Shown: positions 24 to 42,727 of the stretch, in pieces
Position numbering within the stretch: the first letter of the stretch is position 1
How the letters are laid out: each line of letters begins with the position of its first letter
Source: a virus
Virus record (IMG/VR): IMGVR_UViG_2799113103_000001
Coordinates: 3,854 to 67,853 of that record
Length of the DNA stretch: 64,000 nucleotides
Strand: one strand, 5' to 3'
Position numbers and translations under genes: made by a program
Notes under the pieces: model-generated
What the model was told of the DNA's origin: nothing
The model's database searches: none
Seen by the model: only the letters and a program-made list of their open reading frames with translations

Positions 24-752
24 TTACCAGGTTTCGGACGGTTGGCCGATGGCGATGTTGGGTTCGGCGTCGCCTCGGCGGATGTTGCAGTTCAGGTGGC
101 TGGGTCGGAAGTTCCTTGGGTCCAGCGCGAGTTCGGGGGCCTCGGATACGGGGACGGCGTGGTCCACGGAGAAGCTGTCCGGGTGGGGTGCTTTGAGGCT
201 GTAGTCGATGGGGCGCTGGTCCAGCCAGCACACGTCACCGCGCTCCTCGCATTCCTTACGGAACGTGGCCTTGAGTTCCTGGTAGTGGCGGCCGCGTGGG
301 CGTCCTTGTGCGTCGAGGCCGGGCACGTGCTGGGCGGGGCTGCTGCCGGTGGAGGGGTGTTCCTCGTACCAGCGTTTGATGGCGCCCTGTAGCTGCCATG
401 GGCGTTCGGCGCGTGCGCGTTCCATGACGGTGTCTTGGCCGGGGTCGATGGTGATGACCTCGGCGCCGTACGAGCGGTACTTCGTGAGGAGCGCGGGGCT
501 CGGGGTGGAGTGGATCAGGAACACGTCGTGCTCGCCGACGAGGGTGAGGGCGGTATCGATGGCTGCCTGGCGGGCTGCCTTGGTGACTGCCTTCACGTGG
601 TCGGGGTGGTCGTGGCGGTGGGGGCCGTCGTCTTGTGGGGTGAGGGTGCAGGCGATGGCGTCGTAGTCGATGGTGATGTCACCGGGACGCGAGTTGTCCC
701 GCACCCATGTGGACTTGCCCGCTGCCGGCGGACCCACCACCACGAACAGCAC
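24..752 (-). CDS. P-loop NTPase (Walker A GPPAAGKST) with C-terminal HNH-like His/Cys/Asn motif; GTG start overlapping the upstream stop
   Basis: ORF track; Walker A motif; C-terminal HAVPV...HLNCN..R motif; overlap with the next gene. Confidence 0.45.
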   Translation of the reverse strand: MLFVVVGPPAAGKSTWVRDNSRPGDITIDYDAIACTLTPQDDGPHRHDHPDHVKAVTKAARQAAIDTALTLVGEHDVFLIHSTPSPALLTKYRSYGAEVITIDPGQDTVMERARAERPWQLQGAIKRWYEEHPSTGSSPAQHVPGLDAQGRPRGRHYQELKATFRKECEERGDVCWLDQRPIDYSLKAPHPDSFSVDHAVPVSEAPELALDPRNFRPSHLNCNIRRGDAEPNIAIGQPSETW

Positions 753-976
753 TAGACCGCCACCAGGTGGCCGCACTCCAGGCAACGGGGCGTACCGCAG
801 TAACCGGTGATGCGCATCCGGTCGTCGGCGGCCAGCACCACGGCGCCATGGGCGGGTGCGCCCGGTCCGGCCAGGGTGCCGTCCAGGCGGAACCACTCGC
901 TACCGCATTTGACGCACTGGTGGTTGGTGGTCGGTGGGGTGCGGTGCTCGCCGAGTTGGATGACGTTGTCTGCCAT
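752..976 (-). CDS. small zinc-ribbon protein (CxxC...CxxC), about 74 aa from MADNVIQLG
   Basis: Cys pairs CVKCG / CLECG; ATGA-type overlap with the upstream gene. Confidence 0.4.
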   Translation of the reverse strand: MADNVIQLGEHRTPPTTNHQCVKCGSEWFRLDGTLAGPGAPAHGAVVLAADDRMRITGYCGTPRCLECGHLVAV

Positions 977-5717: not shown

Positions 5718-6023
5718 TCACCTGCGCTGCCCTTCCCACTCGCGCAGGCGGTTCCACGCCGTCATCACGAGGTGGTTATCCGCGTCGGTAGGTGTCCCGT
5801 CGAAGATGTGCAGCGCGGTGTAGCCGGGTGTGAAATAGGTGAGGCCGTGCTGGCTGGAGACCCCACCGCCGTAGGCGTCGCCCTCGATCTCCCATTCGAT
5901 GACCGGGCCGCCGTCCGGCGCCACGATAACGATGCGCTCGGTGACTGTCGTGTCCGCGATGCGGTGGGCCAGCTGCACCAGACGCCAAGCAAACCAGCGG
6001 CGGATACCCAACTCCCGGATCAT
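5718..6023 (-). CDS. hypothetical protein about 101 aa (start MIRELG)
   Basis: ATGA overlap with 6020-6349. Confidence 0.35.
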   Translation of the reverse strand: MIRELGIRRWFAWRLVQLAHRIADTTVTERIVIVAPDGGPVIEWEIEGDAYGGGVSSQHGLTYFTPGYTALHIFDGTPTDADNHLVMTAWNRLREWEGQRR

Positions 6024-6349
6024 TCGCCCGGCACCTCTGTCCAGCCAGACGCCCAATGCGACATGACCTTCCACGACGTAGGGTGTTGTCGCGCGCAGTA
6101 TCGGGCAGTTCCCTCACTGCCGATGGTCACCTCGTCATCGCCGATCATCTGCGCACCCCATACACGCGTGATTCCCCCAAGGGCTTTGTCTATCTCAGCG
6201 GACTGGTGTGCGGTCGCTTCCCCTACGTTCCCGAATGACTCTTTGCATCCTGTGCAGATGAATTGATCGAGATACGCAATCCGGTGCTCGCTCAGGACTT
6301 CCGACATGAGCTGCTGTGCTTCGCTTTTCGCAGGACGGCGGTCAGACAC
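6020..6349 (-). CDS. hypothetical protein 109 aa (CTGC motif)
   Basis: ORF track. Confidence 0.4.
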   Translation of the reverse strand: MSDRRPAKSEAQQLMSEVLSEHRIAYLDQFICTGCKESFGNVGEATAHQSAEIDKALGGITRVWGAQMIGDDEVTIGSEGTARYCARQHPTSWKVMSHWASGWTEVPGE

Positions 6350-6773
6350 CTTGGACCTTCACCCCGATATAGATGGCGCCTGGAGTGAGATCGTCATCCA
6401 CCAGGGCCATCTCACCAAACAGGGTTGCCTTGTCCCCCGACTTGGGGTTGTAGGGCGGGACGGACTCACCGTTGAAGAGGGCGTGAAGTGTTTTCGCGTC
6501 CTCTGGGCACACGTAGATGAAGCCGTGGACCGGCTGGTTCGTTGCAACCCGTATGTCCCTCAACGTGTCGATGATGCGTGTGACCATGCGTCTCAGCGGG
6601 TCGTGGCGAGGAATATCAACTACCTCGCTCTTTGTAGCGGCGACAGCCGTAGACATCGACTTCATCGCCGTGATGATTTGTGCCAGAGCGAGTTTCAGGT
6701 TTCCGGCATGCAGGGCATCCTCAGCGCCATTGACCCAAGAGTCGAAATATTCCAGGGGCTCTGCGTCACTCAT
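6342..6773 (-). CDS. hypothetical protein 143 aa
   Basis: ORF track. Confidence 0.4.
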   Translation of the reverse strand: MSDAEPLEYFDSWVNGAEDALHAGNLKLALAQIITAMKSMSTAVAATKSEVVDIPRHDPLRRMVTRIIDTLRDIRVATNQPVHGFIYVCPEDAKTLHALFNGESVPPYNPKSGDKATLFGEMALVDDDLTPGAIYIGVKVQGV

Positions 6774-7159
6774 GATTCGACCACAACGACTATCGGCTTG
6801 CCGGGCATCATGTCGGCCAGCTCGGCTAACGGGTCGATGTGGGTGTGGGCGTCACCGGGCAGAGGCGTCACGGCCAGCTCCACACCATAGGTGTCCTCCA
6901 GACCGGCGAGGTACGCCATGTATGCGTCGGCGTCTGCCAGATCGGGTACAGCGATATCGGCGAGCTGCGGATGCTGTTCCAGCAGTGCTGGTTTGCATTC
7001 GCCTGCGGCACGAGGCAACTGGTGGGTGAACAGGTTGTCGCCGGTCATGAAGTTGAGGAGTTCGTAAATGTCGCCGATATCGCGCGCGAGCATCCGGTCG
7101 GTGGTGACGGTCAAGATGGCGCCGAGGCCGAACATGCGTGAGGTGGGTGTGGTCATCAT
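6770..7159 (-). CDS. hypothetical protein 129 aa
   Basis: ORF track; ATGA overlap. Confidence 0.4.
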   Translation of the reverse strand: MMTTPTSRMFGLGAILTVTTDRMLARDIGDIYELLNFMTGDNLFTHQLPRAAGECKPALLEQHPQLADIAVPDLADADAYMAYLAGLEDTYGVELAVTPLPGDAHTHIDPLAELADMMPGKPIVVVVES

Positions 7160-7534
7160 TTACTCCAATGCCAACTGGGCAACTAGTGATTTCGCGTGCG
7201 CGGCGGCATCTTCGCGGGTGCCGAACACCCGTCCGCCCTGACTGGAAGTGTTGCCGAAACATCCGGGGCGAGTTTCATACTCGTAGTCGCACTCGACGTA
7301 CGTATCGTAGAGATCATCACGCCCGGCGTGATAGCGGTACAGCCCGGATACGACACCAAGTTTCTGGCCGGTTTGGACATCGTAGATGTCATCTCCGACT
7401 TGAAGTTTCGACGTTTCATGCATTTTCGCGTCCAGCCATTCGCGGCGCGCGTCTATCGCCGCCTGCACTGCCGCGTTCAAGGCTTCCAGTTCCGAATGCT
7501 CGTCGGCATTCAACGGTCTCTGGGTTCTGATCAC
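7160..7534 (-). CDS. hypothetical protein about 124 aa (GTG start, GTGA overlap with the upstream stop)
   Basis: ORF track; overlap geometry. Confidence 0.4.
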   Translation of the reverse strand: MIRTQRPLNADEHSELEALNAAVQAAIDARREWLDAKMHETSKLQVGDDIYDVQTGQKLGVVSGLYRYHAGRDDLYDTYVECDYEYETRPGCFGNTSSQGGRVFGTREDAAAHAKSLVAQLALE

Positions 7535-7758
7535 GCCATCTCCTCGCTTGTGAAGATCAGGGGCGCGAGCTCGCTCCACGCCTGACCAAGGTCACGACGC
7601 AAGAGCTCGATAGACCAGCTGGCCGACCAGTCCCGTATAGGTTTCAAAGCCTCACGGGCAGCGGCTTCGGCTAGATACCGCTCGGCCCCTTCCGGCTCTC
7701 CGTCTTCGGACCATGCGGCCAGAACCTTTTGTGCGGCAGAGATTGCAGGGTCAGTCAT
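7531..7758 (-). CDS. hypothetical protein 75 aa
   Basis: ORF track. Confidence 0.35.
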   Translation of the reverse strand: MTDPAISAAQKVLAAWSEDGEPEGAERYLAEAAAREALKPIRDWSASWSIELLRRDLGQAWSELAPLIFTSEEMA

Positions 7759-7969
7759 GAGGTTCCCCAGCGTTCCATTCCTTGAGGTCCACGGACCCTA
7801 GGTACTCGAATCTGTATCCGCCGTAGTGATAAACCCCGTGCTGCTCAACGAGTTCCGCCAGCTGGCCTACGGTATGGATGCCCTCTGGTCCTGCAGAAGC
7901 CGTGTCACCCACGGGTACGTCAGCATCGCCGGACGGCTGCACGCCCATGGAATGCAGATCAGCGCCCAC
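7751..7969 (-). CDS. hypothetical protein 72 aa
   Basis: ORF track. Confidence 0.35.
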   Translation of the reverse strand: MGADLHSMGVQPSGDADVPVGDTASAGPEGIHTVGQLAELVEQHGVYHYGGYRFEYLGSVDLKEWNAGEPHD

Positions 7970-7996
7970 GGTGCGCCTCCAGTGCGGTCGATACCG

Positions 7997-8854
7997 TCAT
8001 CGCCATCTACTTCGACTGACAGCGATGTTGTGTGCGTTTCGGATCGCGCCGGAGAGCCGGGCTTCGGGCGGGGTATCGCGCGTACGCCAGTGCCTTTGGT
8101 ACATATCGACCAACCACGTGTTGATCCGGACCCAGTCCGGCCCATCCGGCAGAGACGCTGTCGAGATGGAGTGCTCCAGACTCCAGGTCAGATACGCCAA
8201 CCAGCCCTTCACATCAGGGAGCGAGGTCTCACCGCGCCGAACGCGGAGCAGCGCATCACGATGGGCCTTGACCATCGGCAGGTGCAGCTTCCCCTCAACA
8301 AGGAGCTGGATACCCTGCATGCCCAGTCGCAGGGCGTGATACGCGTACTTGGTGTCGAAGCCGTACTGTTCGATGAGTTCGGGCCGGTTGGTGTGCCGGT
8401 GGTGAGTGCCCTCCAGCCCTTCACGCTGGGAGTTCAGGTAGCCGAGGAACTTCCGTCCGGCCTGCTTGGTCACGAACAGCTCTGAGGCGGCCTGGAGCTC
8501 GACGCCTAGTTGGGTCTTCACTGTCAGCTCATCGTCGGGTATCCAAAGCATCAGCAGCACTGAGGGATTGCCTTCGGCGGCGAGCCGCGTCCACTTCCGA
8601 AGGCTGTAGACGCACAGATCGAGGTCGCCGGGGCCGGAGCGGGCGCCGTCCGGTTGGGTGCGGTATATGTACTGTTCGAACTTCTCCAAACCGATTACGG
8701 CTTCGGGCGGTTCGATGCATATGCCCATTTCGTCGCGGTCGTCGGCGCCGGTCGTGACACCGTGCAGGCCGGAGCCGACCTGGCCGCGCAGGATCGTGTT
8801 CTCGTCCGCGATAGCGCAGTGCCGCTCCGTGCCGTGGCGCGCTTCGGTACTCAC
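7997..8854 (-). CDS. putative Pol-beta-superfamily nucleotidyltransferase (GSGLHGVTTGADDRDE motif), 285 aa
   Basis: GS-x9-DDRDE signature near the N-terminus; GTG start with GTGA overlap to the upstream small gene. Confidence 0.4.
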   Translation of the reverse strand: MSTEARHGTERHCAIADENTILRGQVGSGLHGVTTGADDRDEMGICIEPPEAVIGLEKFEQYIYRTQPDGARSGPGDLDLCVYSLRKWTRLAAEGNPSVLLMLWIPDDELTVKTQLGVELQAASELFVTKQAGRKFLGYLNSQREGLEGTHHRHTNRPELIEQYGFDTKYAYHALRLGMQGIQLLVEGKLHLPMVKAHRDALLRVRRGETSLPDVKGWLAYLTWSLEHSISTASLPDGPDWVRINTWLVDMYQRHWRTRDTPPEARLSGAIRNAHNIAVSRSRWR

Positions 8855-9021
8855 AGTCCACGCTCCAGGTGCTTCTTGAATTGCTTCTTGTCCATGACGA
8901 TTCCCGTGGTCCAGTCCGGTGTGGCAATGGTTTTCGCTAGCGCGCAGTCCGTTTCAGTCGTGAACGGGCCAACGTGCTTCCCGTTGAGCCGGTTCACGAT
9001 ATGGAAAGGGCCGCTACTCAT
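8851..9021 (-). CDS. small protein 56 aa (MSSGPFHIVNRLNG...)
   Basis: own translation; ATGA overlap with the 9018 stop and GTGA overlap with the nucleotidyltransferase start. Confidence 0.4.
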   Translation of the reverse strand: MSSGPFHIVNRLNGKHVGPFTTETDCALAKTIATPDWTTGIVMDKKQFKKHLERGL

Positions 9022-9239
9022 TGGGAGGTGGCCGTTCTACCGTCGATGATTTTCTGGATGAGTTGGGGGCTGCACTTCACGGCGGTGGCGAGGGTGGCGT
9101 GGGTCCACTTCTCGCGCTCGTTCGTCCAGAGTTCCCGTACCAGCCGGTCGCGCTGGCTTCGGTGCTGGCTGGCGGAGTCACGGTCTTCCCCGGCCAGCCG
9201 GTGGTGCTCACGGGCTTGCTGTGCCCTCGGGTCCATCAA
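9018..9239 (-). CDS. small HTH protein 73 aa
   Basis: ORF track; HTH-like THATLATAVKCSPQLIQKI. Confidence 0.4.
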   Translation of the reverse strand: MMDPRAQQAREHHRLAGEDRDSASQHRSQRDRLVRELWTNEREKWTHATLATAVKCSPQLIQKIIDGRTATSQ

Positions 9240-9670
9240 CGGCCCCCGATGTCCACGCGGCGGCGGGATATCTTCTCGATCGCGGTGATGGCTTCCCCTC
9301 CGGGGTCTTCGATCTCGAAGATGCCGTGCTCAGCCGCTTCACGGCCTGATTCGAACAGCGGCACTGGACTCACGTACTCGAATGCGGCCTGTACGTCCTC
9401 AGGAGACAGCGAACCCGTGACGGCGCCCATGCGAATTGCGAGTAGTTCCTCGCCGCCGTGACAGCCGATCCAGCCTGCGCATAGCCGGGCCGCTTCGTCG
9501 GCGACGTCAGTCTGGTGGCACAGGAACAGGCCGGTCGGCTGCTCCGAGGTCGGAGCGTCGTACGCGATGAGCTTCTGGTACTCGGTGGCATGCCACACGC
9601 CGCTGGGAACGTCCTCCCGGTAGGGGCACGACGCGCAGGGGCGCGGCGCGGGGCCGCCGACCCTGCCCAT
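9236..9670 (-). CDS. hypothetical protein 144 aa (Cys-rich N-terminus)
   Basis: ORF track; coupled to the rsr stop. Confidence 0.4.
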   Translation of the reverse strand: MGRVGGPAPRPCASCPYREDVPSGVWHATEYQKLIAYDAPTSEQPTGLFLCHQTDVADEAARLCAGWIGCHGGEELLAIRMGAVTGSLSPEDVQAAFEYVSPVPLFESGREAAEHGIFEIEDPGGEAITAIEKISRRRVDIGGR

Positions 9671-9672
9671 CG

Positions 9673-11376
9673 TTACAGGTCACCTCGGGCGAAGTCCGAG
9701 ATGAGCTGCGGCACCGCGCTATCGAACCCGGACACGTCGAGCTGGCGCGGGTCCGAAGGATCTGCGATGGTCTGCCGGCCGCCGGTCATCGCGACAACCA
9801 TCAGGCTGGTATCCAGGCCGAGCTTGTTCCGGTACTCGGTGAGCGCCTGGTGCGGGTGGATACCGCCGTACCAGGTCTCGTTGTCGGTGAGGATCACGAC
9901 GGCGTCGTAGGGGCGGAGCTGCGCCTTGGCCCAAACCATCGGGAGCGCGCAGTCCGTCGCACCCATGGGGAGGCGTGCCGTGTACTGGCACACGTCATCG
10001 AGGCGGCGGCGCGGCGTGATGTCCAGCTCCGTGATGCCGGATGAGCGGAAGCTCCCTCCGGCCCCAGCCGTGAAGCCGATCATGTCGTGATTGGGCTCAA
10101 CGTTGGCGGTCACGAGGGCGAGCGCGGCGGCGGCCTCGCGGCACGTCAGCGGCATACCCGAGATCGCGGCGCCCATGGAGCCGGAGATGTCCAGCGCGAG
10201 CAGGGTCCGCTTGCCCGAGGGCTCGACGGCGCCGTAGGCGCTGTAGAACGCGGCGTCGAGCGCGTCAACGATGTGCCGGTTCGGCGTCCAGGTGGACTCA
10301 CCGCGCGCCGAACGCCCGGAGGCATAGGTGCGCTGCGCGACAAGGACATTGATCGGGTGGACGCGGCCCTTCCGTAGCCGGTCGGCGTCCTGGAGCTGCG
10401 CAGCGACCCGGCTGCCGAGCTGACCGTTCAGCACGCCGAGGCGGGTTAGGCGGGGCAGCTGCCGCATGAGTGCGGTCTGCGGGAGGCCGTGCTCGATCAG
10501 GGCCTCCCAGATCACGGGCTGCGTAAGGGCCTTGTCGGGGAATGCCTCCCATGGCAGGCCGTTGCCCCGGCGGATGATCGCCAGCCACTCCTTGGCGGTG
10601 GTAGCGCGCTGCGCGGCCTCGTAGTCCGCGATGATGGCGAGCGGGTGCCCGTCAGCCAGTTCCACGTCGGGCAGCTTGGGGCGCTTGGGGTTGCGCTCAC
10701 CGGCCTTGAGCTGCTCAGGGGTCAGCTCCCGCACCGAGACATCGGTGTAGTCGTTGAGACCCTTGCCGACAGCCCAGTTGAACGCCAGGCGGCGGGCCGG
10801 GTCGCTGGTGGTGGGGCCGCTGAGCCGGAGCATGTCGCGGTGGGTCCAGCCGTCACGCTGCCGGTACTTGACCAGCTGGTAGGCGAGCCGGTCCACGGGC
10901 TTGTCCAGGTACCAGCTGGAGACGGCGCGCTTCATCGCCGGTCCCCAGCCACGGAACTGCTCCATGTACTTGGTGAACAGGTACAGGTGGGTGGCGGTGC
11001 GCGCGACTCGGGGCAGCGCGGCGGCGGCGGCACGGCGGCCATCGACGTTCTCGGCGGCCGACGCGATAGCGAGCGCGAACAGGGCCGGGTTCTGCTTGGG
11101 GGCGCGTCCGGCCTCGGAGACCTCAACGATCTTCTGCACGAGGGTGACGGGATCGGTTGCGGCGAGCCGGATCACGACATCGGCGGCGTCACGGGTCAGG
11201 TCCTCGGCGGAGGTGTAGTACGTGCCGCCGGTCGTGCCGAGGGTCAGGAACCGGTGGAGCCGGGTCCAGTCGTCGGCCTGGAAGGTGTAGCCCCCGGCGG
11301 CGTTCTTGACCTGGCGCGGGTCCGCCTTCTGGGATTGGGGGGTGCGCCGCGTGCTGATCGAGGATAGAACGTCCAC
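9673..11376 (-). CDS. rsr: Ro60-like protein Rsr (TROVE domain plus vWA domain with DISGSMG MIDAS motif), 567 aa
   Basis: RLHRFLTLGTTGGTYY and PALFALAIA resemble Ro60 hallmark segments; C-terminal vWA with DxSxS; GTG start with AAGGAG 6 nt upstream. Confidence 0.8.
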   Translation of the reverse strand: MDVLSSISTRRTPQSQKADPRQVKNAAGGYTFQADDWTRLHRFLTLGTTGGTYYTSAEDLTRDAADVVIRLAATDPVTLVQKIVEVSEAGRAPKQNPALFALAIASAAENVDGRRAAAAALPRVARTATHLYLFTKYMEQFRGWGPAMKRAVSSWYLDKPVDRLAYQLVKYRQRDGWTHRDMLRLSGPTTSDPARRLAFNWAVGKGLNDYTDVSVRELTPEQLKAGERNPKRPKLPDVELADGHPLAIIADYEAAQRATTAKEWLAIIRRGNGLPWEAFPDKALTQPVIWEALIEHGLPQTALMRQLPRLTRLGVLNGQLGSRVAAQLQDADRLRKGRVHPINVLVAQRTYASGRSARGESTWTPNRHIVDALDAAFYSAYGAVEPSGKRTLLALDISGSMGAAISGMPLTCREAAAALALVTANVEPNHDMIGFTAGAGGSFRSSGITELDITPRRRLDDVCQYTARLPMGATDCALPMVWAKAQLRPYDAVVILTDNETWYGGIHPHQALTEYRNKLGLDTSLMVVAMTGGRQTIADPSDPRQLDVSGFDSAVPQLISDFARGDL

Positions 11377-11400
11377 CGTGTGCTCCTTGCTGGGTTAGGT

Positions 11401-11477
11401 GGCGCGGGCGTGTGAGTGACCGCCGGGGTTCATCCAGTTGCGAGGTTGGGGTAACCGACCGTCGTCCTGCTCGCGCC
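11401..11477 (-). ncRNA. Y-RNA-like unit A, stem-only
   Basis: RNA reads GGCGCGAGCAGGACGACGGUCGGUUACC-21 nt-CCCCGGCGGUCACUCACACGCCCGCGCC; terminal GGCGCG/CGCGCC pairing; shares the conserved stem strands of units B-E. Confidence 0.45.
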
Positions 11478-11491
11478 AAAGGGGTTTGGGT

Positions 11492-11612
11492 GATGTGGGC
11501 GTGTATGTGCTGACCGGGATTTCGCTTTTACACCCGCACCGGGGCACGGGCGACAGGGGTCGAACCTGCATTACCAATTGAGTGATAACCGACCGAGCGT
11601 CCTGCTCACATC
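11492..11612 (-). ncRNA. Y-RNA-like unit B with a T-arm-like hairpin (GCAGGUUCGACCCCUGU) but no recognisable D-arm
   Basis: terminal GAUGUG/CACAUC pairing; conserved GAGCAGGACGC..GGUCGGUUA and CCGGUCAGCACAUACACGCCC strands. Confidence 0.45.
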
Positions 11613-11647
11613 GAAAAGCTATGGAGTTATTGATAATTCGCGTAGGC

Positions 11648-11786
11648 GGCGTGGGCGTGTGATTGCTGACCGACCGTTTAGCGTGCTGCCGTTACACCAC
11701 GGAGCGCCTACGGCGCGCCCGCCGGGATTCGAACCCGGACTACCTCTTTTCGACAGAGATAACCGACCTGCGTCCTGCTCACACCA
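11648..11786 (-). ncRNA. Y-RNA-like unit C with a permuted tRNA-like module
   Basis: T-arm CCGGGUUCGAAUCCCGG; acceptor-like helix GGGCGCGCC-GUA-GGCGCUCC; D-arm-like CGUGGUGUAACGGCAGCACG; terminal GGUGUG/CACGCC pairing. Confidence 0.5.
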
Positions 11787-11805
11787 TCTACTGCGAAGCC
11801 TTGGG

Positions 11806-11944
11806 GATGATGCGGGCGTGTGTGTGCTGACCGGGGTTAAGCGCTCTACCGACTGAGCTACAACCACTTTCGTGGCTGACGGGACTCGAACCCGCGACCT
11901 CTCCATTACAAGTGGTAACCGACCTGCGTCCTGCTCGCATCATC
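11806..11944 (-). ncRNA. Y-RNA-like unit D with a permuted tRNA-like module
   Basis: T-arm GCGGGUUCGAGUCCCGU, then 7-bp acceptor helix CAGCCAC-GAAA-GUGGUUG, then canonical D-arm UAGCUCAGUCGGUAGAGC; terminal GAUGAUGCG/CGCAUCAUC pairing. Confidence 0.55.
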
Positions 11945-11962
11945 AATGTGAAGTTGTATCCG

Positions 11963-12137
11963 GGATGGCGTGGGCGTGTGAGGTGCTTACCGGCGTTGAT
12001 CTTGGATCAATGCATTCGGCCGCTCTGCCACGTTCCGCCCGATGAAAGCCCGAAGCTCTTTCAGGCGGCCCGGCGGGATTCGAACCCGCGATCTGATGAT
12101 TTTCAGATAACCGACTCGCGTCCTGCTCACGCCATCC
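11963..12137 (-). ncRNA. Y-RNA-like unit E with a permuted tRNA-like module
   Basis: T-arm GCGGGUUCGAAUCCCGC; acceptor helix closed by a UUCG-capped hairpin; terminal 10-bp GGAUGGCGUG/CACGCCAUCC pairing; extra hairpin UUGAUC-CAA-GAUCAA. Confidence 0.55.
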
Positions 12138-12140
12138 ATG

Positions 12141-12290
12141 TTTTGTTGACTACGCCATGAACTATACCTCAGTAATGCCTGTTCAGGGCATATTTTTTGA
12201 GGAAATGTTGATTCGCTGGAAGGTGACTCCCGTACCGGGGAAAGTATGCCGTCGCGGGCCTCGACCTGGCTACCGAATATCGGTATCAGT
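12141..12290 (-). promoter_or_regulatory. AT-rich intergenic region upstream of the Y-RNA array; candidate promoter; contains a plus-oriented hairpin plus T-run (ATGCC-TGTTCAG-GGCAT-ATTTTTTG)
   Basis: AT-richness 12141-12240; no ORF; hairpin followed by T6. Confidence 0.3.
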
Positions 12291-13031
12291 TCAGTGAGGT
12301 ACTTCGTCCAGGCCGTTCATCTGCAGCGTCGCGACCATCGCTTCCACCACCCGCTCCGCGGACCAGTCGTCGGGAGCCGAGATCAGCGTTCCCTCATTCT
12401 GCTTCGACATGGTGAGCCCATCCGCAACCTGCGTCACGGCGGCGGTCTGCGCGTTGATCCAGGTGCGGTAGCCAACCCGGATCTTCCAGTTGCCGCGCCG
12501 CGCGACGCGGTTCGCTTCCCTGTCAGTGAGCATCAGGTACGAGGGGCGCCATGTGGAAGCGACGGCTGTGACCACTGCGTCACCCACTTCGCTGGTGAGA
12601 CCGCCCGGTGTGATCTCCCGCAGGTCCACCTTGAGATGGTGTGCGGGCACTCTGCCTCCGAAACTGACATATCCCGCGCTCACCCACACCCTCACCTCAA
12701 CTGACGGACCAGCGCCCATCAAAACCATCGAATAGCCCTCACCGGACAGGGGTTCACCGTCTTCGCCGTCTGGAAGCGCCTCTCGCACTGGGTTTCTACG
12801 GACTATGCCGGCCAATACCTCCGGCGAGCCCTCCCACCGATCACCCCTTGCGGTATCCCATCGGGCGATACCGAGAATCCCCTGCAACTGCGCCAGCAGC
12901 GCATCCGCGCGCCCGGCGATCCACTCTGGTGTTTCACTCTTCGCGAGCCAGACGGCGGTCACGAACGCGTATCCCGACCAGACCGGTGAGGGTGCATGTG
13001 TTGCGGTCACAGCTTCCAACTTTACTTTCAT
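12291..13031 (-). CDS. putative immunity protein for the upstream toxin (246 aa)
   Basis: immediately downstream of the toxin gene with ATGA overlap; no recognisable enzymatic motif. Confidence 0.45.
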   Translation of the reverse strand: MKVKLEAVTATHAPSPVWSGYAFVTAVWLAKSETPEWIAGRADALLAQLQGILGIARWDTARGDRWEGSPEVLAGIVRRNPVREALPDGEDGEPLSGEGYSMVLMGAGPSVEVRVWVSAGYVSFGGRVPAHHLKVDLREITPGGLTSEVGDAVVTAVASTWRPSYLMLTDREANRVARRGNWKIRVGYRTWINAQTAAVTQVADGLTMSKQNEGTLISAPDDWSAERVVEAMVATLQMNGLDEVPH

Positions 13032-14935
13032 GGCTTCTCGGGGGTGTAGATCACTCGAACGTCAGGGAACCCACCTTCATCCAGGAGATCACGAATTATC
13101 GCCGCACTCGAAGGATTAGCGACGTGCCATTCAAGTGCTGCCCCTTCTGGTAGGGCACGCAGCTGCCTCTGGGCTTCAGCGAGGAGGCCGTTCTCAATGT
13201 TCACTGTCCACGGCTTACCGGGGCTCTCGAACAGGGGCGCGTAGTTGTGTTTCGCGTCGAGGAAAACCTCCTGACCGCCCCGCTCGATGGGTCCGCTGTC
13301 GAACCTGACCACCTGGCCAGTATCGGGGTTCGTCACGACGTACTCCGGTATGCGCCCGTCTGGGGTCCGCTCGATACCCGTGATCTGGGACTGGTAGTCC
13401 ATCCAGGGCTTCTCCGGGCCGCGATTGACGTGCTCCCAACCTGGCGTGGGGTCACCCTTGGTCCAGGTCGGCTCGGGAGTATGGGGCGGCCACCCACCCG
13501 GGTGATGCGGATCTCCCGACGTGTAGTGCTGCCCCACGCTGGGGTCGAACTGATCGGGTGTCGGTAGTTGGTGCTGGGTCAGGGGTGGAGAGTGGTCGCC
13601 GACCGTAGGTGCTGGATGATCGACCGTGGGGGCGAGATGGGTTGCTTCGCTTGGGGGCTCTGCGGTGTGTGCGGGGGCTGGTGTGTCGTGGAGTGCGCCG
13701 GGGGCCGGAAGATCCGGGTGCATGCTGCCCAGATGCGCAGCAGACCCTTCAAGTCCAGCACGGGGCAACAGGCCCTCGGGACCACCTGCCATTAGCGCCC
13801 CACCATCGACCAGCCTTTCCCCGACATATTGGCCGGGATTTTCGATGTTGTGCTTGATGCCTTCGGCTATGTCGGCGCCAGGTGGGGTGGTCATCTGGTG
13901 CTTGAAGGATTCCCATTCACGCCTACCGGCCTCTTCGTTAGCCTCCCAAAAACCCTTGTCGCCCAACCCCAAGCGGTCCCGCAGGTCAGTGAAGGGGGCG
14001 GCCAACTTATCGACGCCCTTGTCGATGCCCTCGGAAATGTTCGTCTTGAAACGCTCCGCAGCCGATGGTTTGTGTTCTTCCGGTGGCTTGTCGTTGCGAT
14101 TGAGGTAGGTGACGCTTTCGCCCAGGCCGCCCACCTTGGTCTTGTCGATGGTGTCCTTGGCGAACGGGCCGTATTGCGGGGCATTCGGGTCGGCAGCAGC
14201 GGTGGCAGCGGTCGGGGTGGTCGCGGGATTTTTGATGTGCTCCAGCTTGTCGCCGAGCGTCCCGGCGCCGGGATCGATGGAGGCCGGATCGGTGGCCTTC
14301 GGGTACCAGTCCTTGTAGAAGTTCGCGGGCTGGGCGCTCGGGTCGCCGGGTTTCGGGGTCGCGGCGTCGCGCAGGGCTTTGCGCCCGTCCACGAGTGCCG
14401 TTTTGGGGTTGGCGCAGCCGGTGATCTTCTGGGCCGCCGCGTCGGCCTGTCCCTTGAGGGTTTGGCAGCCCTTCTCCCACTTGGCGACGTGGTCCTTGAT
14501 CAGGCGTTCGGTTTCGGCGACGTGCTCGCGGTTTCGGGCTATCGAATCGTCGCTCTCGCCTTCGGCCGGGTGGTAGTCGCACTTGAAGTTCTGGTCGATC
14601 GAGACGCCCTTGTCGGCGTGCGCCAGCACCCTCTCGATGAGGTTCTGCCCGCCGGTCAGATTGGGCACTACCTCGTAGGTGATGGTGGCCGTCGCCAGCT
14701 TGACGGCGTCCTCGGCGGTGTCGTCGGTGTTGTCGGAGACGCGGCAATCGGTGGACGCCCCCTCGTAGGACGCGGTCGCGGTGTGCCCGGTCCACTCCGT
14801 GCCATCGGGGCTGCCTGCCCAACGCTTGTAGTCGTCGTAGATTTCCTTGAACTGCTGAGTCTGCGGACGCCACGTATCGACCACCGCCATGTAGTCATTG
14901 GCCTTGACCGCCATGAACTCATCGAGCGTCGTCAC
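13028..14935 (-). CDS. polymorphic toxin: N-terminal WXG100-like domain (YKRWAGSPDG), long Pro/Thr-rich linker, C-terminal PD-(D/E)xK-like nuclease domain (RIPEY..RFDSG..QEVFLDAKHN)
   Basis: WXG motif at about residue 35; low-complexity PT-rich middle; C-terminal E..D..ExxxDAK pattern; start GTG at 14935 or ATG at 14914. Confidence 0.55.
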   Translation of the reverse strand: MTTLDEFMAVKANDYMAVVDTWRPQTQQFKEIYDDYKRWAGSPDGTEWTGHTATASYEGASTDCRVSDNTDDTAEDAVKLATATITYEVVPNLTGGQNLIERVLAHADKGVSIDQNFKCDYHPAEGESDDSIARNREHVAETERLIKDHVAKWEKGCQTLKGQADAAAQKITGCANPKTALVDGRKALRDAATPKPGDPSAQPANFYKDWYPKATDPASIDPGAGTLGDKLEHIKNPATTPTAATAAADPNAPQYGPFAKDTIDKTKVGGLGESVTYLNRNDKPPEEHKPSAAERFKTNISEGIDKGVDKLAAPFTDLRDRLGLGDKGFWEANEEAGRREWESFKHQMTTPPGADIAEGIKHNIENPGQYVGERLVDGGALMAGGPEGLLPRAGLEGSAAHLGSMHPDLPAPGALHDTPAPAHTAEPPSEATHLAPTVDHPAPTVGDHSPPLTQHQLPTPDQFDPSVGQHYTSGDPHHPGGWPPHTPEPTWTKGDPTPGWEHVNRGPEKPWMDYQSQITGIERTPDGRIPEYVVTNPDTGQVVRFDSGPIERGGQEVFLDAKHNYAPLFESPGKPWTVNIENGLLAEAQRQLRALPEGAALEWHVANPSSAAIIRDLLDEGGFPDVRVIYTPEKP

Positions 14936-14945
14936 ACCCGCGCCC

Positions 14946-15266
14946 CTATGCGCGCTTGGGCGGCTGATAGATGGTGGGCAGGCTGCTATAACCGGCCGCC
15001 AGGGAACTCTCCGTGATCGCGAAAGCCTGATGGGCCTCGTCATCGAAGTCAGCGATCGTGTTCAACCGGGCAGCGCCGATCCGCTTCACATCCGCGATAG
15101 CCTTCGACACCCCATGCAGCGCTGCCAACCCCGGATCAGCACCAGCAGGCGCCCCAACATCAGCCGGAATGCTTTTCGTAAGCTCACCGGCAAGTGTCCG
15201 CAGATGCGGGCCGAGCTTGCCCAACGCCGCAAGATCAAACTTGAGAACGTTCTCATCGCCCGACAT
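14946..15266 (-). CDS. small alpha-helical protein (106 aa), possible ESX/WXG-type partner of the toxin; no canonical WXG
   Basis: GAAGGGGG RBS 4 nt before ATG; position directly upstream of the toxin. Confidence 0.4.
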   Translation of the reverse strand: MSGDENVLKFDLAALGKLGPHLRTLAGELTKSIPADVGAPAGADPGLAALHGVSKAIADVKRIGAARLNTIADFDDEAHQAFAITESSLAAGYSSLPTIYQPPKRA

Positions 15267-24918: not shown

Positions 24919-25400
24919 GGTGTATTCCCCGCTCTCTTGATGCTCGCTACGCCCGCCGCCCGGTACGCGAGGGCCTGTATTACGTGCTGTGGCAACTGCT
25001 CAGGTGTCTTGTTGATCGAGACTTTGCGGCGCACCTCGACGCGACCATGCGGATACAAAGGGGTCGGGTCGTGGATCCACCACAGCCCGCACCCGTAGAC
25101 AGGCGGATGCTCTATGAGCCCAGCCGGTACCGCATACACAAATCTGTGGCACACCCGGCGCCACGGTTGGACCTTTTCCCAGGTCTCCTTTGCGGCATCG
25201 GCTTTGGAGACTTTGATCTCAATCGCGGTGCGTTCCAAGCTGTCGAACATCAGCGCGTCTATCCGGCGTGTGTAGGGCTGCCCATGCCCATCGGGCAGCT
25301 CAGCCCAGATTGGGTGGTCATCGTGTATCACCACTTCGGGTACTAGCGCAGCGTCCCGGTGGTGTTTACGCAGCGCGGCAAGCACATCGGCGGCGTTCAC
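24915..25400 (-). CDS. PD-(D/E)xK-like nuclease-fold protein (IDALMFD..EIKVSKAD)
   Basis: D..E-x-K motif context. Confidence 0.35.
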   Translation of the reverse strand: MNAADVLAALRKHHRDAALVPEVVIHDDHPIWAELPDGHGQPYTRRIDALMFDSLERTAIEIKVSKADAAKETWEKVQPWRRVCHRFVYAVPAGLIEHPPVYGCGLWWIHDPTPLYPHGRVEVRRKVSINKTPEQLPQHVIQALAYRAAGVASIKRAGNTP

Positions 25401-26038
25401 GACGCATCACCCCGTTCAAGGAACTCGATGCCTTCTGCGAGGGTGTCGATACCGACTGGCGCTAGGTTCCAGGCATCCACTCCGACATGGAGCTGACGCT
25501 GGTGTACGTACGGCAGATAGCTTGCGGTGCTGTGGGTATGGCCGTGGAGAAGCCATGCGCCTTCATCGCGGAGCCGGTACTGGTTGTACCGCTCAGCGGT
25601 GGTGTGGTCGCCCAGGTAAGGCAGATGCGACATGAGAACGGTTCGGCCGCCGATACGGCGCCGCGCGAACGGCTGCACCGACTGAAACACCTGGAGGTAG
25701 TCGCGTTGCCACTTGTGGGCGTCGCGGTACATCGGGTGGCACCGGTCATGGTTACCCGGAACCAGGTGCTTCTCGCCCGGCCTCTGGTACAGCCACGCAA
25801 GAGACTTCATCTGGGCGGTGTTGGTTCCAGAGCTGTTGTCCCCCAGATCCCATACCTGGTCTCCGGGGTGAACGATGGCATCCCACTTCTCCGCCAAGGT
25901 CTGGTCATGCCACTCGATAGCCGCGAGTTGCCGATCCACAGGGTTGGCCGGCAGGGCGATACCGGCGCGCTCTGCCCGGATCACAGCGACGAGCGCGTGC
26001 CCGATATGTAGGTCGGAGACGAACCAGACAGTCGTCAT
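25397..26038 (-). CDS. calcineurin-like metallophosphoesterase (DLHIGH, GDNSSGTN, GNHD, HGHTH motifs)
   Basis: canonical phosphoesterase motifs. Confidence 0.6.
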   Translation of the reverse strand: MTTVWFVSDLHIGHALVAVIRAERAGIALPANPVDRQLAAIEWHDQTLAEKWDAIVHPGDQVWDLGDNSSGTNTAQMKSLAWLYQRPGEKHLVPGNHDRCHPMYRDAHKWQRDYLQVFQSVQPFARRRIGGRTVLMSHLPYLGDHTTAERYNQYRLRDEGAWLLHGHTHSTASYLPYVHQRQLHVGVDAWNLAPVGIDTLAEGIEFLERGDAS

Positions 26039-26976
26039 CACGCAACCGCCCCTGGGTATTGGTCCCATGTGCGCCCATCCAGCTCCCGCCCGGCGCGCCT
26101 CTTGCCGACGCGCATGACGAACGCATGGGGATCACTGAGATTGGCCCAATCCCGGTACTGATGTCCTGTGTTCGGTGTCCACTCGCCCCACTGTTTGAAC
26201 AGGAACGGCACGCCAGCGGCTACGCACTGATCGCGTAGCGAGCGAGCCCATTCGGGATGCATCGGCCTTGCGCCAGGACCGGATTCGCCGCCAACTATCA
26301 CCCAGCTGAGAGGTGGCACGTCGTACTTGGCGTCATCGTGCTCAGCGAACCGCGCGATGTCCAGCGGCCCGAGGAGCGGCTCGGCGCTGACGAACCGCAC
26401 GGCTGCCGAGGTATCCAGCAGGGCCGGAATGCGTAGGTCGGCGCGCTTCTGATCCTCGGCGCTCACGCCCAACCAGACGTTGGGTAGCACCTTGAACCGC
26501 CCCCGAGAGAAGCCGTCGAGTGCCGCCATGATCGCCACATCGTTGATGTGGAGCGGGTTACCGTGTTCCAGCAGTGCGTTGATGGCCATGTACACGAGGC
26601 CCGGGAACCTCTCAGATCCGAGGAGCGCGTGCATGCGGCCGTGGCGTTTGGTTAGCAGCTGGAAAGTGTGTCGTGGCGCGAGGGCCATGACGGCGAACAC
26701 GCGGGCTATGTACTCGTCAGGCACCTTGTCGTGGAACAGGTCTGACATCGAGTTGACGAACACCTTGCGCGGTTTGGTCCAGCGCAGGGGCAAGTCGAGC
26801 TTGTCCGGTCGCAGCTGCACATCGAACCCGCTCTCGAAGTAGTGCCCCGGCGTGCCGCGCCAACGCTCGGCAAACGTCTCGGCGTAGCAGTGATCGCAGC
26901 CGGGAGAAACCTTGTCGCAGCCGGTTACGGGATTCCATGTGGCATCGGTCCATTCGATGCCGGTCCTGTCACCCAT
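26038..26976 (-). CDS. phage Gp37/Gp68-family (DUF5131-like) protein, Cys-rich N-terminus (TGCDKVSPGCDHCYA)
   Basis: N-terminal WTDATWNPVTGC...CDHCY signature. Confidence 0.5.
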   Translation of the reverse strand: MGDRTGIEWTDATWNPVTGCDKVSPGCDHCYAETFAERWRGTPGHYFESGFDVQLRPDKLDLPLRWTKPRKVFVNSMSDLFHDKVPDEYIARVFAVMALAPRHTFQLLTKRHGRMHALLGSERFPGLVYMAINALLEHGNPLHINDVAIMAALDGFSRGRFKVLPNVWLGVSAEDQKRADLRIPALLDTSAAVRFVSAEPLLGPLDIARFAEHDDAKYDVPPLSWVIVGGESGPGARPMHPEWARSLRDQCVAAGVPFLFKQWGEWTPNTGHQYRDWANLSDPHAFVMRVGKRRAGRELDGRTWDQYPGAVA

Positions 26977-31541: not shown

Positions 31542-32429
31542 TTACTTGGTTGGAGCGGGGATCGTGGCGAGGGCGCCGGTACCGGGCCAGCAGCCCCACG
31601 GGGACATGCCCTTGTCGAGTGCTTTGGTGATGCAGTTCTGCACAATCACGTTGGGGTCGTTGGACACCGATGACGAGAGGATGCGGTTCGCTTCGGCCTG
31701 TTCAGTGGCCGTCTTCTTCGCCTGCTCCGCTTTCGCTGTATTGGCGCGCTCAGCGTTCAGCTCATTGATGCGGGCTTCGGTGCCGTCGTCGTAGTCGATG
31801 GTGGGCACCGCCACGTCGAGGATGTCTACCTGTTCTCCGACGAGCCTCCGCAGCTTCTCGGAGGTGTCCTTGGCGAATGTCTCCAGCGGTAATCCGTTGG
31901 CCCACTTGGTAGCCAGTGGGTCCAGCTTGGAGAACACATCGTTGAGTGCGACCTGGAGGTTCCGAGTGATGAGGTTGGTTCGGACGTTGTCGAACGATCG
32001 GTACTGGACATACAGCTCGTCAGCGGCGTCCTGCTTGATCTGCCAGCGCACGGACACGTCCGCGTCGGCGGTGGATGAGTTCCCGAGCCTTACCTTGATC
32101 CGGTGGTCGCCTTCGTACTTGTCGATCTGCACGGCGGCGTCCATCTCATCGACCGTTGCCCAAGGCCTCTTCCAGTGCAGGCCGTTGGAAAGTGTTTCCC
32201 CGGATGGCTTTCCGAATACGGTCTCGATACCGACCTTCCGGGTGCCGACGACTGTGAAGCAGCCCAGCAAAAGGACGACTACGGCGACAACTAGGGCGAT
32301 GCCTCCGGCGACGAACGAAACGTAGGGGCCTTCGGCATCTCGATCGATCCGGTGGGCGACGAAGCCGCCGCCACACAAGGCCACGGCGATGAGACCGAAT
32401 ATCAGGAACGTGACAAATTCCCAGGACAT
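31542..32429 (-). CDS. SPFH/band-7 (prohibitin/HflC-like) membrane protein with two N-terminal TM helices
   Basis: TM segments followed by IETVFGKPSGETLSNGLHWKRPW; coiled-coil/Ala-Glu-rich C-terminus. Confidence 0.5.
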   Translation of the reverse strand: MSWEFVTFLIFGLIAVALCGGGFVAHRIDRDAEGPYVSFVAGGIALVVAVVVLLLGCFTVVGTRKVGIETVFGKPSGETLSNGLHWKRPWATVDEMDAAVQIDKYEGDHRIKVRLGNSSTADADVSVRWQIKQDAADELYVQYRSFDNVRTNLITRNLQVALNDVFSKLDPLATKWANGLPLETFAKDTSEKLRRLVGEQVDILDVAVPTIDYDDGTEARINELNAERANTAKAEQAKKTATEQAEANRILSSSVSNDPNVIVQNCITKALDKGMSPWGCWPGTGALATIPAPTK

Positions 32430-40125: not shown

Positions 40126-40581
40126 ATGAGCGCTATGAGTACGTTGTATTCGGTTCCGAACGAGACCCTGTCCCAGACAGTGGCCCGCCGAATCCGGGGG
40201 CTGCTCGGGGAGAAGCGCATCTCTCAGGCCAAGTTCGCCAAGATGCTGGAGACGAACACCGCGAGCATGTCGCGGCGGCTCTCAGGCGAATACCCCATCG
40301 ACCTGGCTGAGGTTGAAAAGTATGCAGCCGCACTGGGGGTGTCCCCAATGCGGCTGTTGACTGGTCGGCCTGACGGCAGTGGCCCGGATGGACCTGATGT
40401 GCGCCCGAAGGGATTCGAACCCCTAACCTTCTGGTTAGGGGTTCCCAAGTCGCCTGCGTCTTCCGATAGCGCCATCACTGATCTGGGCGAGTATCGCAGG
40501 GCGCGACGCCACACGCCAACACGCCACGCACCAGCCGCCTCTCACCCGGACCGTGCGGGCCTCGATGCGGGCGCGGCGTGA
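40126..40581 (+). CDS. immunity repressor, XRE-family HTH, 151 aa virion form ending ..DAGAA; attP core lies inside the ORF
   Basis: HTH ISQAKFAKMLETNTASMSRRLSG; tRNA-3'-end-like sequence at codons about 92-106; Ala-Ala C-terminus. Confidence 0.6.
   Translation: MSAMSTLYSVPNETLSQTVARRIRGLLGEKRISQAKFAKMLETNTASMSRRLSGEYPIDLAEVEKYAAALGVSPMRLLTGRPDGSGPDGPDVRPKGFEPLTFWLGVPKSPASSDSAITDLGEYRRARRHTPTRHAPAASHPDRAGLDAGAA
40401..40445 (-). other. putative attP common core: tRNA 3' end mimic (AGGGGTTCGAATCCCTTCGGGCGCA on the minus strand) with a 9-bp inverted repeat CCCCTAACC-n4-GGTTAGGGG
   Basis: T-loop GGTTCGAATCC plus a 7-nt acceptor strand; no matching 5' half nearby. Confidence 0.45.
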
Positions 40582-41761: not shown

Positions 41762-42727
41762 ATGAGCTCAGGCCCACAACCGCTCCCCGTCCCTCATGAG
41801 TGGCAGCCACTCGTTGACCGGTATCGGCTCGCACTCCAGGCAGCCGGATACCCGAAGACCACCATCGGCACCCGGATGTCCCACATGAACCGGATCGCCA
41901 GATCCTTGGCGGTTCCGCCCGAGGGAGTGACACACGATCTACTCGAGGTGTGGTTCGCGCACCAAACCCAGTGGGCTCAAGAGACCCGGCGCGGCTATCG
42001 CACCTCAGCGACGAAATTCTTTGGCTGGGCCCACGCAGCAGGCCACATACCAATCGACCCATCCACGAAACTGCCGCCAGTGAAGCCGGGGCAACCCACG
42101 CCGAACCCCGCACCTGACCGCATCTGGAAAGAAGCGCTCCTCGCGGCCGACGCCAGAACCACGGTCATGCTGCACCTCGCTTGCGGGGCCGGGCTTCGAC
42201 GGGCCGAAGTCGCACAAGTCCACACCGATGACCTCCGGGAGGGCTTCTCCGGGTACCAGCTGCTCGTGCACGGCAAGGGGGCCAAGGACCGCCTGATCCC
42301 GATCTCAGACGAGATCGCAGCGATGATCCTCGCCGGGCCGGGCGGCCACACCCCCGGTCACGGCAACCGAGGATTCTTGTTCCCTGGGGCCGATGGCGGC
42401 CACCTCTCCGCACGGTGGGTCGGAAAGCTCTGCGCAGCAGCGATGCCGGGGGTTTGGACGATGCATAAGCTGCGGCACCGGTTCTCTACCCGCGCATACC
42501 AGCGCACCCGGAACCTCCGCGCCCTCCAGCAGCTCCTCGGGCATGCGAGCGTCGCCACCACGCAGATCTACACTGCGGTCGATGACGACGAGATGCGGGA
42601 GACGATGCTCGCCGCTACTGACACCAGCCCGCGACCTTGGACGCGATGGGCGAGTTCTGCAGCCGGGGTCGTTGTTGCGGCAAGCGCCGCGACACTAGCC
42701 AGTCATGCGGTGTCGCTAGTACCTTAA
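41762..42727 (+). CDS. int: tyrosine integrase (R..HxxR..Y catalytic C-terminus LRHRFSTRAY...QIYTAVDDD), 321 aa, no arm-binding N-domain
   Basis: tyrosine recombinase signature motifs. Confidence 0.75.
   Translation: MSSGPQPLPVPHEWQPLVDRYRLALQAAGYPKTTIGTRMSHMNRIARSLAVPPEGVTHDLLEVWFAHQTQWAQETRRGYRTSATKFFGWAHAAGHIPIDPSTKLPPVKPGQPTPNPAPDRIWKEALLAADARTTVMLHLACGAGLRRAEVAQVHTDDLREGFSGYQLLVHGKGAKDRLIPISDEIAAMILAGPGGHTPGHGNRGFLFPGADGGHLSARWVGKLCAAAMPGVWTMHKLRHRFSTRAYQRTRNLRALQQLLGHASVATTQIYTAVDDDEMRETMLAATDTSPRPWTRWASSAAGVVVAASAATLASHAVSLVP

Follow-up and report, generated by a model that had tools for sequence, protein, structure and literature searches.

An RlaP-family nucleotidyltransferase near a Ro60–Y RNA cassette in a Mycobacteroides abscessus phage

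The DNA analyzed here is a 64,000-nucleotide stretch of an IMG/VR virus record (IMGVR_UViG_2799113103_000001, positions 3,854 to 67,853), hereafter the window, in which a nucleotidyltransferase (NTase) of 285 amino acids (aa) is encoded on the minus strand at 7997..8854, downstream of rsr, the gene for a Ro60 orthologue. By every sequence criterion, this protein falls within the known RlaP family as an ordinary member. It is probably a template-independent RNA nucleotidyltransferase that serves as an optional accessory of a phage RNA damage-control toolkit, and not an obligate, co-evolving subunit of Ro60. Comparative gene order indicates that the gene actually locked to rsr is not the NTase gene but that of a small helix-turn-helix (HTH) protein.

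Family assignment and predicted activity of the nucleotidyltransferase

Translated from a GTG start, the NTase matches a single Pfam family at E <= 0.1, PF10127 (RlaP, 'RNA repair pathway DNA polymerase beta family'). With E 8.3e-34 and 117.8 bits (gathering cut-off 23), residues 18-250 pair with positions 18-249 of the 249-position profile, and PHROGs returned phrog_388, 'nucleotidyltransferase', with E 1e-63. A search of 5.8 billion proteins afforded 3674 relatives, mostly actinobacterial, and PF10127 is carried by all 120 NTase homologues among the matches listed. The signature motif comprises G27-S28, nine residues and D38-D39-R40-D41-E42, and an alignment of 30 relatives (51-80% identity) revealed invariant G27, S28, D39, D41, D77 and D79; as judged from this alignment, the two-metal carboxylate set is intact. 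The initial annotation had proposed a polymerase (Pol) beta nucleotidyltransferase from a GS-x9-DDRDE signature, and both the exact motif and the conserved carboxylate triad bear this out.

Structural modeling is consistent with the family assignment. An AlphaFold2 model (predicted local distance difference test, pLDDT, 88.6) places strands in residues 20-113 and helices in residues 115-259, and the resulting N-terminal alpha/beta domain and C-terminal helical domain agree with the published description of Pseudomonas fluorescens RlaP (PfRlaP), the basis of this comparison; the PfRlaP crystal structure consists of an NTase domain and a C-terminal helical domain that form a cleft. Sequence searches of the PDB, with the single protein and with a 30-sequence profile, gave no match, and Foldseek against the PDB recovered only generic proteins combining an NTase with a helical domain, with template-modeling (TM) scores of 0.3-0.46. 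Against viral models, the best structural matches were phage 'nucleotidyltransferases' with TM scores up to 0.73. Homologues were detected by tblastn in 540 phage records, with identities of 46% to Bxz1 gp3, 45-48% to cluster C gp3 homologues overall and 53% to proteins of Gordonia phages. T4-like nrdC.11 is a more distant match (~24% identity, E 8e-9), and T4 NrdC.11 has been assigned to the RlaP family (PMC12776372).

The RlaP family owes its name to an association with RNA ligases, and its members were predicted to replace, ahead of ligation, nucleotides that cleaved RNAs have lost. A 2025 preprint (PMC12776372) characterized the P. fluorescens and P. aeruginosa enzymes: among E. coli macromolecules RNA alone was labelled, and no action on DNA or protein was seen. 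These enzymes require a 3'-OH, add 1-2 nucleoside monophosphates (NMPs) with little specificity for the nucleoside triphosphate (NTP), have a preference for Mn2+ and, in a nicked tRNA mimic, for the 5' half, and raise the aminoacylation of a tRNA repaired after the loss of one nucleotide. Since characterized RlaPs extend RNA 3'-OH ends by 1-2 nucleotides and prefer broken tRNA (PMC12776372), a role in RNA repair is the best reading for the phage protein, and the general direction of the initial annotation, a possible RNA-processing function, was sound.

The more specific proposals of that annotation, a CD-NTase/SMODS, MNT-like or CCA-adding enzyme, fared less well. RlaP is the only family returned by Pfam, PADLOC gave 0 matches and NCBIfam none at E <= 0.01, so all three are unsupported. 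A CD-NTase/CBASS enzyme or other defence NTase was rejected on the Pfam and PADLOC results and on neighbors that include nothing effector-like. NTases of the MNT/HEPN antitoxin type are ~100-150 aa long, whereas this protein has 285 aa and a helical C-domain, no NTP_transf_2 match and no HEPN neighbor. The PolyA_pol head domain (PF01743), expected of a class II CCA-adding enzyme or poly(A) polymerase, appeared in neither Pfam (E <= 0.1) nor NCBIfam (E <= 0.01), and an aminoglycoside NTase was rejected on the Pfam, PADLOC and NCBIfam results together. A broader form of this idea would make the protein a signalling, toxin or small-molecule NTase, whether CD-NTase/CBASS-like, MNT antitoxin-like, a Hailong HalB-like oligonucleotide synthase or an aminoglycoside NTase. 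The top Foldseek matches in the PDB, namely 3c18, ANT(4')/AAD(9) and Hailong HalB (E 4e-5 to 4e-3), point that way, but their low TM scores are accompanied by only ~10-15% identity. Neither SMODS nor NTP_transf_2 nor KNTase models match, PADLOC is empty, no HEPN or effector partner is encoded among the neighbors, and the substrates measured for the RlaP family are RNAs rather than small molecules, DNA or protein. We therefore regard such a function as very improbable.

Proposed role and association with Ro60

In the RNA-repair reading that we favor, host anticodon nucleases or toxins would cleave tRNAs, and the resulting 5' halves would lose nucleotides. These 5' halves would be the most likely NTase substrates, their 3' ends being rebuilt by 1-2 NMPs before a ligase restores full-length tRNA. 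Pfam scans of open reading frames (ORFs) of at least ~100 aa across the 64-kb window, together with tblastn, detected no RNA ligase, RtcB or PNKP domain, and likewise no RtcA or RtcR; we infer from the missing ligase, RtcB and Pnkp that resealing would be left to a host enzyme. As part of the same toolkit, Ro60 and Y RNA may handle or decoy damaged or misfolded RNA. The NTase gene itself lies three small genes downstream of the Y RNA-Ro60-HTH cassette, within an extended series of tightly packed early genes that share one direction.

Bacterial neighborhoods support an RNA-repair context for this NTase subfamily. Within 8 kb of bacterial RlaP relatives (43-57% identity), Pnkp is encoded at 8 of 80 loci, RtcB at two and Ro at one, so that a ligase-type neighbor (Pnkp or RtcB) accompanies 10 of the 80. 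Phage RNA-repair repertoires are likewise described as including Ro/TROVE and RlaP, and rsr with its Y RNAs has been linked to an operon induced by broken tRNAs. An abstract by Burroughs and Aravind from 2016 reportedly places Ro/TROVE modules and RlaP within RNA-repair systems. The idea that both belong to such systems is already in the literature, and the initial claim of a new partnership for Ro60 was overstated.

How closely the NTase follows Ro60 was assessed from gene order in relatives. The order Ro-DUF6283-HTH-(orf56 or another gene)-RlaP was found only in four IMG/VR contigs with Ro identities of 92-98%; being near-identical, they count as one lineage. At locus L091 (Ro 74%, RlaP 68% identical) RlaP lies 3.4 kb downstream of Ro with other genes between, and at L112 (43% and 45%) it lies 1.7 kb downstream. 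L161 has RlaP immediately upstream of a Y RNA T-arm motif, followed by Ro and then the HTH gene. At L032, on the 5-Mb chromosome of an Ilumatobacteraceae metagenome-assembled genome (MAG; OZ257157.1), RlaP is divergent from Y RNA-Ro and ~0.4 kb away. The L032 cluster (5939-12707) comprises Ro60 on the minus strand, a T-arm motif at 7848, RlaP at 8001-8756 and Pnkp at 10170-12707, whose kinase, phosphatase and ligase domains were confirmed by Pfam. A MAG closely related to that of L032 (L043) encodes RlaP and Pnkp and has no Ro match. Conservation of the order rsr, HTH, NTase, which the initial annotation proposed to check in related phages, held in part: synteny with rsr is seen, but the fixed order is confined to one narrow phage clade. 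Of the two outcomes that the initial annotation named as refuting it, a missing carboxylate triad and no synteny with rsr in any relative, neither was observed.

Several observations weigh against the RNA-repair reading or against a tight link between RlaP and Ro60. Ro is found near the NTase in just 6 of 36 viral NTase loci, representing 3 lineages, and at the single bacterial locus counted above. The sister phage prophiGD43A-5, whose Ro is 76% identical, has no NTase near Ro; its Ro-HTH pair runs directly into a DUF7736 block, and the orf56-RlaP-orf72-orf75-orf139 block is missing. Because the DUF7736 block lies downstream of the NTase in the window, the NTase block is simply absent from prophiGD43A-5, and no alternative repair enzyme occupies the corresponding place. 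The closest NTases without Ro (75-76% identity) reside in other M. abscessus prophages among unrelated genes, and Bxz1-type (cluster C) mycobacteriophages carry Ro and NTase ~26 kb apart. A Ro-NTase spacing of a few kb is itself not strongly non-random in phage genomes of ~50-100 kb. The missing ligase and end-healing enzymes count here as well, since the 'ligase-associated' context that gave the family its name is absent from the window; that neighborhood named the family and is not required for Pfam membership. Finally, the addition of 1-2 NMPs to an RNA 3'-OH is known only for PfRlaP and the P. aeruginosa enzyme (PaRlaP).

Many of these points would also be expected from chance juxtaposition, in which the NTase, as an RNA-repair or other enzyme, works independently of Ro60 and Y RNA and owes its position to actinophage mosaicism and dense packing. 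The direct passage from Ro-HTH to the DUF7736 block in the sister phage and the 75%-identical NTases of Ro-less M. abscessus prophages fit this explanation, as does the situation in other actinophages, where the NTase is mostly a solo gene among hypothetical genes. DUF6283 and orf56 behave as variable fillers, and overlapping gene junctions are common throughout the genome (see below), so coupling is not particular to the chain from rsr to the NTase. On the other side, Ro and RlaP recur in at least five different arrangements at identities of 43-74%, the 5-Mb chromosome of L032 brings them within ~0.4 kb of each other beside Pnkp, and each family is independently tied to RNA damage responses. 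Chance juxtaposition is accordingly a serious possibility that falls somewhat short of being probable. From the comparative data, we take RlaP to be an accessory RNA-repair gene, one that has landed beside the Ro60 cassette repeatedly but not regularly; functional cooperation between the two is plausible, though we lean against it.

Two closer forms of cooperation can be envisaged. RlaP might, as the initial annotation suggested, extend the 3' ends of the YrlA-like RNAs, which lack CCA, and so control their stability or their binding to the Ro60 ring. A preference for broken, tRNA-like substrates with little NTP specificity would suit this task, the YrlA modules are tRNA mimics, and the NTase borders the cassette on its Y RNA side at L161 and L032. 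Yet 40 of 44 viral Ro-HTH loci, those outside the clade of the window, have no adjacent RlaP, nor do any of the inspected Ro loci of Bxz1-type (cluster C) and Streptomyces phages, so Y RNA biogenesis does not need RlaP. Most RlaPs, moreover, occur in genomes or loci without Ro, and a tailing or maturation function for Y RNA is quite unlikely. The second form is a ligase-less Ro60 ribonucleoprotein (RNP), in which YrlA's tRNA-like domain would recruit RlaP to RNA 3' ends fed through the Ro60 ring for rebuilding instead of decay, with the small HTH protein as an unrecognized, dedicated Ro60 cofactor or regulator. This arrangement is modeled on the tethering of Ro60 to PNPase by Y RNA in Deinococcus, with the outcome switched from decay to 3'-end rebuilding; by analogy it may be entertained, and we consider it unlikely.

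The Ro60–Y RNA module and its small HTH companion

The rsr gene (9673..11376, minus strand) encodes a 567-aa protein with matches to PF05731 (TROVE, E 1.7e-51) and PF25045 (vWA_Ro60, E 1.7e-56). NCBIfam identified it as Rsr (E 9e-142, below the equivalog cut-off), and it is 76% identical to gp52 of prophiGD43A-5, annotated as 'Ro-like RNA binding protein'. Upstream lies an array of YrlA-like, tRNA-mimicking Y RNA modules (11500..12130, minus strand), recognized from Rfam and T-arm motifs. Three T-arm motifs, GGGTTCGARTCCC, occur on the minus strand at 11724, 11881 and 12075, and the whole window contains four where 0.36 are expected. The Rfam YrlA model RF02553 matches at 11825-11925 (minus strand; 36.9 bits, E 3e-6), under its gathering score of 69. 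A T-arm motif precedes Ro at eight further loci (L091, L001, L003, L128, L161, L178, L180 and L032), and the array agrees with previously published YrlA arrays beside phage and bacterial Ro60. On these features, the TROVE and vWA protein with its adjacent YrlA-type RNA is a bacterial/phage Ro60-Y RNA module.

The sole gathering-level Rfam match is a 154-nt 'tRNA' at 11714-11867 (minus strand), a kind of match also noted at L001 (10374-10452). Its D-arm and T-arm come from two successive Y RNA units, so we consider it an artefact of permuted arms; ARAGORN found no tRNA. The prophiGD43A-5 annotation places a 'tRNA-Thr' upstream of Ro; it, too, overlaps this T-arm motif and may be another Y RNA module. 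The fourth perfect T-arm motif of the window, GGGTTCGAATCCC, stands apart from the array at 40410-40422 (minus strand), near a tyrosine integrase gene (41762-42727, plus strand), and may represent an attP core that stems from the 3' end of a host tRNA.

The small HTH-like protein, here HTH72, is encoded on the minus strand at 9018..9236 with an ATG at 9236. Homologues align from residue 2, which makes this ATG the likely start and gives a protein of 72 aa rather than the 73 aa initially annotated. Its match to HTH_31 (E 0.0045) is below the Pfam cut-off. The family nonetheless has 442 members, 67-76 aa long in the loci seen, with a near-invariant N-terminal RAQQAREHH and a C-terminal WTY..LA.AVGCSPELIA helix-turn-helix. 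An AlphaFold2 model (pLDDT 83) consists of a helix at residues 3-39 and the HTH at residues 46-65, and Foldseek of this model gave nothing significant beyond generic HTH regulators.

In an IMG/VR profile scan, Ro was directly upstream of HTH72 at 43 of 44 viral loci, usually with a gap of 0-20 nt and with Ro identities as low as 46%. Examples include L128 (HTH72 at 6001-6210), L003 (7589-7804), L001 (7749-7979) and L178 (8001-8219), with further loci among L134-L177. In INPHARED, HTH72 follows Ro immediately in all seven records that have a homologue, among them prophiGD43A-5, prophiT37-1, Sparky, Farewell, BearBQ and Cashline. Ro and HTH72 are likewise paired in a Gordonia prophage and, outside phage sequence, in a Pseudonocardia chromosome, there with T-arm motifs upstream of Ro. 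The converse fails: the seven HTH72-bearing phage records include neither cluster C nor Streptomyces phages, and no HTH72 gene follows Ro at the Streptomyces, Gordonia Forza and Microbacterium loci inspected. From this conserved pairing, HTH72 looks like a dedicated partner or regulator of Ro60 in Actinobacteria and their phages, and no description of the pair was found in the literature searched.

By comparison, the other small genes of the chain are loosely placed. The Cys-rich 144-aa protein (9236..9670, minus strand) matches DUF6283 (PF19800, E 1.6e-38) and has conserved Cys and His residues, such as C..CPYR and LCHQ. DUF6283 sits between Ro and HTH only in the clade of the window and is lacking from other Ro-HTH cassettes, and it is encoded in 37 phage records without Ro, including several ~76-kb mycobacteriophages and phages of Rhizobium, Microbacterium and Phaeobacter. 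In mycobacteriophage Jobypre it lies ~36 kb from that phage's own NTase. As a candidate partner of Ro or RlaP, DUF6283 was rejected on its absence from other Ro-HTH cassettes and its distance from the NTase in Jobypre; by its distribution, it is a mobile filler inserted between Ro and HTH in this clade. The 56-aa orf56 (8851..9021, minus strand), an ORF call with no family assigned, has no match in Pfam, PHROGs, PADLOC or NCBIfam and varies within the clade, being present at L085, L086 and L121 and absent from L084 and L098.

Gene chain, genomic setting and known systems

In the order of transcription, an untranslated tRNA-like stretch of ~900 nt is followed by rsr, the 144-aa ORF, the HTH gene, orf56 and the 285-aa ORF. 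All named ORFs lie on the minus strand, at the coordinates stated initially. The same genes with the same starts (567, 144, 72, 56 and 285 aa, the last protein being identical) were called independently on a publicly available 75,023-bp contig from an M. abscessus sequencing run. Strong Pfam matches and hundreds to thousands of homologues mark the named ORFs as real genes rather than chance frames. The initial annotation had described stops and starts overlapping along the whole chain, and this applies to three of the four junctions from rsr to the NTase. The stop of the 144-aa ORF and the HTH start form TTGATG, where the likely ATG overlaps TGA by 1 nt, and the HTH/orf56 and orf56/NTase junctions overlap as ATGA and GTGA, respectively. 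As read from the sequence, rsr and the 144-aa ORF are instead separated by 2 nt (TAA, 'cg', ATG), and the Y RNA array does not overlap rsr. Overlaps of 1-8 nt occur at 22 of the 36 same-strand junctions on the identical 75,023-bp contig, and the tight gene chain runs on past the NTase, with a 27-nt gap and further overlaps thereafter. Overlap alone therefore delimits no functional module, and a promoter and terminator scan yielded nothing informative.

The source is a ~75-kb temperate actinophage or prophage of Mycobacteroides abscessus. A 100% identical NTase entry is named from this species, and among annotated phages the closest, with an rsr DNA identity of 78%, are two M. abscessus prophages, prophiGD43A-5 and prophiT37-1. 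The window has a G+C content of ~64%, with nearly all genes on one strand, and encodes a Sipho_Gp37 tail protein, a holin, an integrase, RecE/RecT-like proteins and replication initiators, as well as a 1476-aa ORF that is of tape-measure size as judged by position and length alone.

Other genes of the window were surveyed alongside. Just upstream of the Y RNA array, a 671-aa protein (13028-15043, minus strand) carries a C-terminal Tox-REase-5 domain (E 2.5e-6), and its gene is overlapped by 4 nt by a 246-aa ORF (12291-13031, minus strand) without a family match; from this arrangement, the two look like a polymorphic toxin and its immunity protein. A 290-aa protein (24-896, minus strand), encoded where the gene run ends downstream, appears to fuse a P-loop AAA_33 kinase-like domain (E 1.2e-5, just under the cut-off) to an HNH nuclease; the kinase of Pnkp belongs to the AAA_33 family, so that a part in end healing is conceivable. 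A Metallophos phosphoesterase (25397-26068, minus strand, E 2e-11) is encoded ~14 kb upstream of rsr. A phage-encoded ligase or end-healing set was rejected for the ORFs of at least ~100 aa scanned across the window, the only candidates being the sub-threshold AAA_33-HNH protein and the generic Metallophos protein, both far away. A Band_7/SPFH protein (31542-32429, minus strand, E 9e-18) lies ~20 kb upstream of rsr; Band-7-like genes are found a few kb from Ro in Microbacterium phage Cece, where RtcB is also near, and in Streptomyces phage BoomerJR.

What bacterial and phage Ro60 and Y RNAs do is understood mainly from Deinococcus and Salmonella. The sporadic but recurrent placement of Ro60/Y RNA near RlaP, in one chromosome together with Pnkp, offers comparative support for Ro60 RNPs acting in RNA-damage repair and not in decay only. 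With Y RNAs, Ro60, HTH and RlaP in one temperate M. abscessus phage, the locus is a compact test system. tRNA-cleaving toxins are abundant in mycobacteria, and the locus suggests that these prophages carry countermeasures against them, which would be relevant to phage biology and therapy. The more useful lead is the Ro-linked HTH72, which could be a missing regulator or partner of actinobacterial Ro60.

Comparison with characterized systems places the locus among several relatives. Pseudomonas RlaP, encoded between rtcB and rtcA (PMC12776372), shares with the phage NTase a full-length PF10127 match, the G-S/DxD/D signature and, as far as the predicted model goes, the two-domain architecture, and presumably the addition of 1-2 NMPs to an RNA 3'-OH. 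In contrast, the NTase of the window is phage-borne, belongs to an actinobacterial subfamily and lies near Ro60/Y RNA with no RtcB, RtcA or ligase beside it. T4 NrdC.11 and the phrog_388 phage NTases, such as Bxz1 gp3 and the 'NrdC-like' Faith1 gp35, are homologous phage early or accessory genes; in phrog_388 phages the NTase is solo or far from Ro, whereas here it lies ~0.8 kb downstream of rsr. The Salmonella rsr-yrlBA-rtcBA operon (PMC7790460; PMC4201824) likewise sets Ro60 and YrlA-type RNAs beside an enzyme for broken RNA ends, and a response to cleaved tRNAs may be the common theme. Since RtcB, RtcA and RtcR are absent, the window locus is not of this operon type: its partner is RlaP instead of RtcB/RtcA, RtcR/sigma-54 control is lacking, a small HTH protein gene comes after rsr, and the whole is a phage element. 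Among Pnkp/Hen1-type RNA repair loci with RlaP, L032 differs from the window in encoding Pnkp, where the window has neither Pnkp nor ligase, and in its divergent rather than co-directional arrangement, but it shares an RlaP, 52% identical to the phage NTase, beside Y RNA-Ro60.

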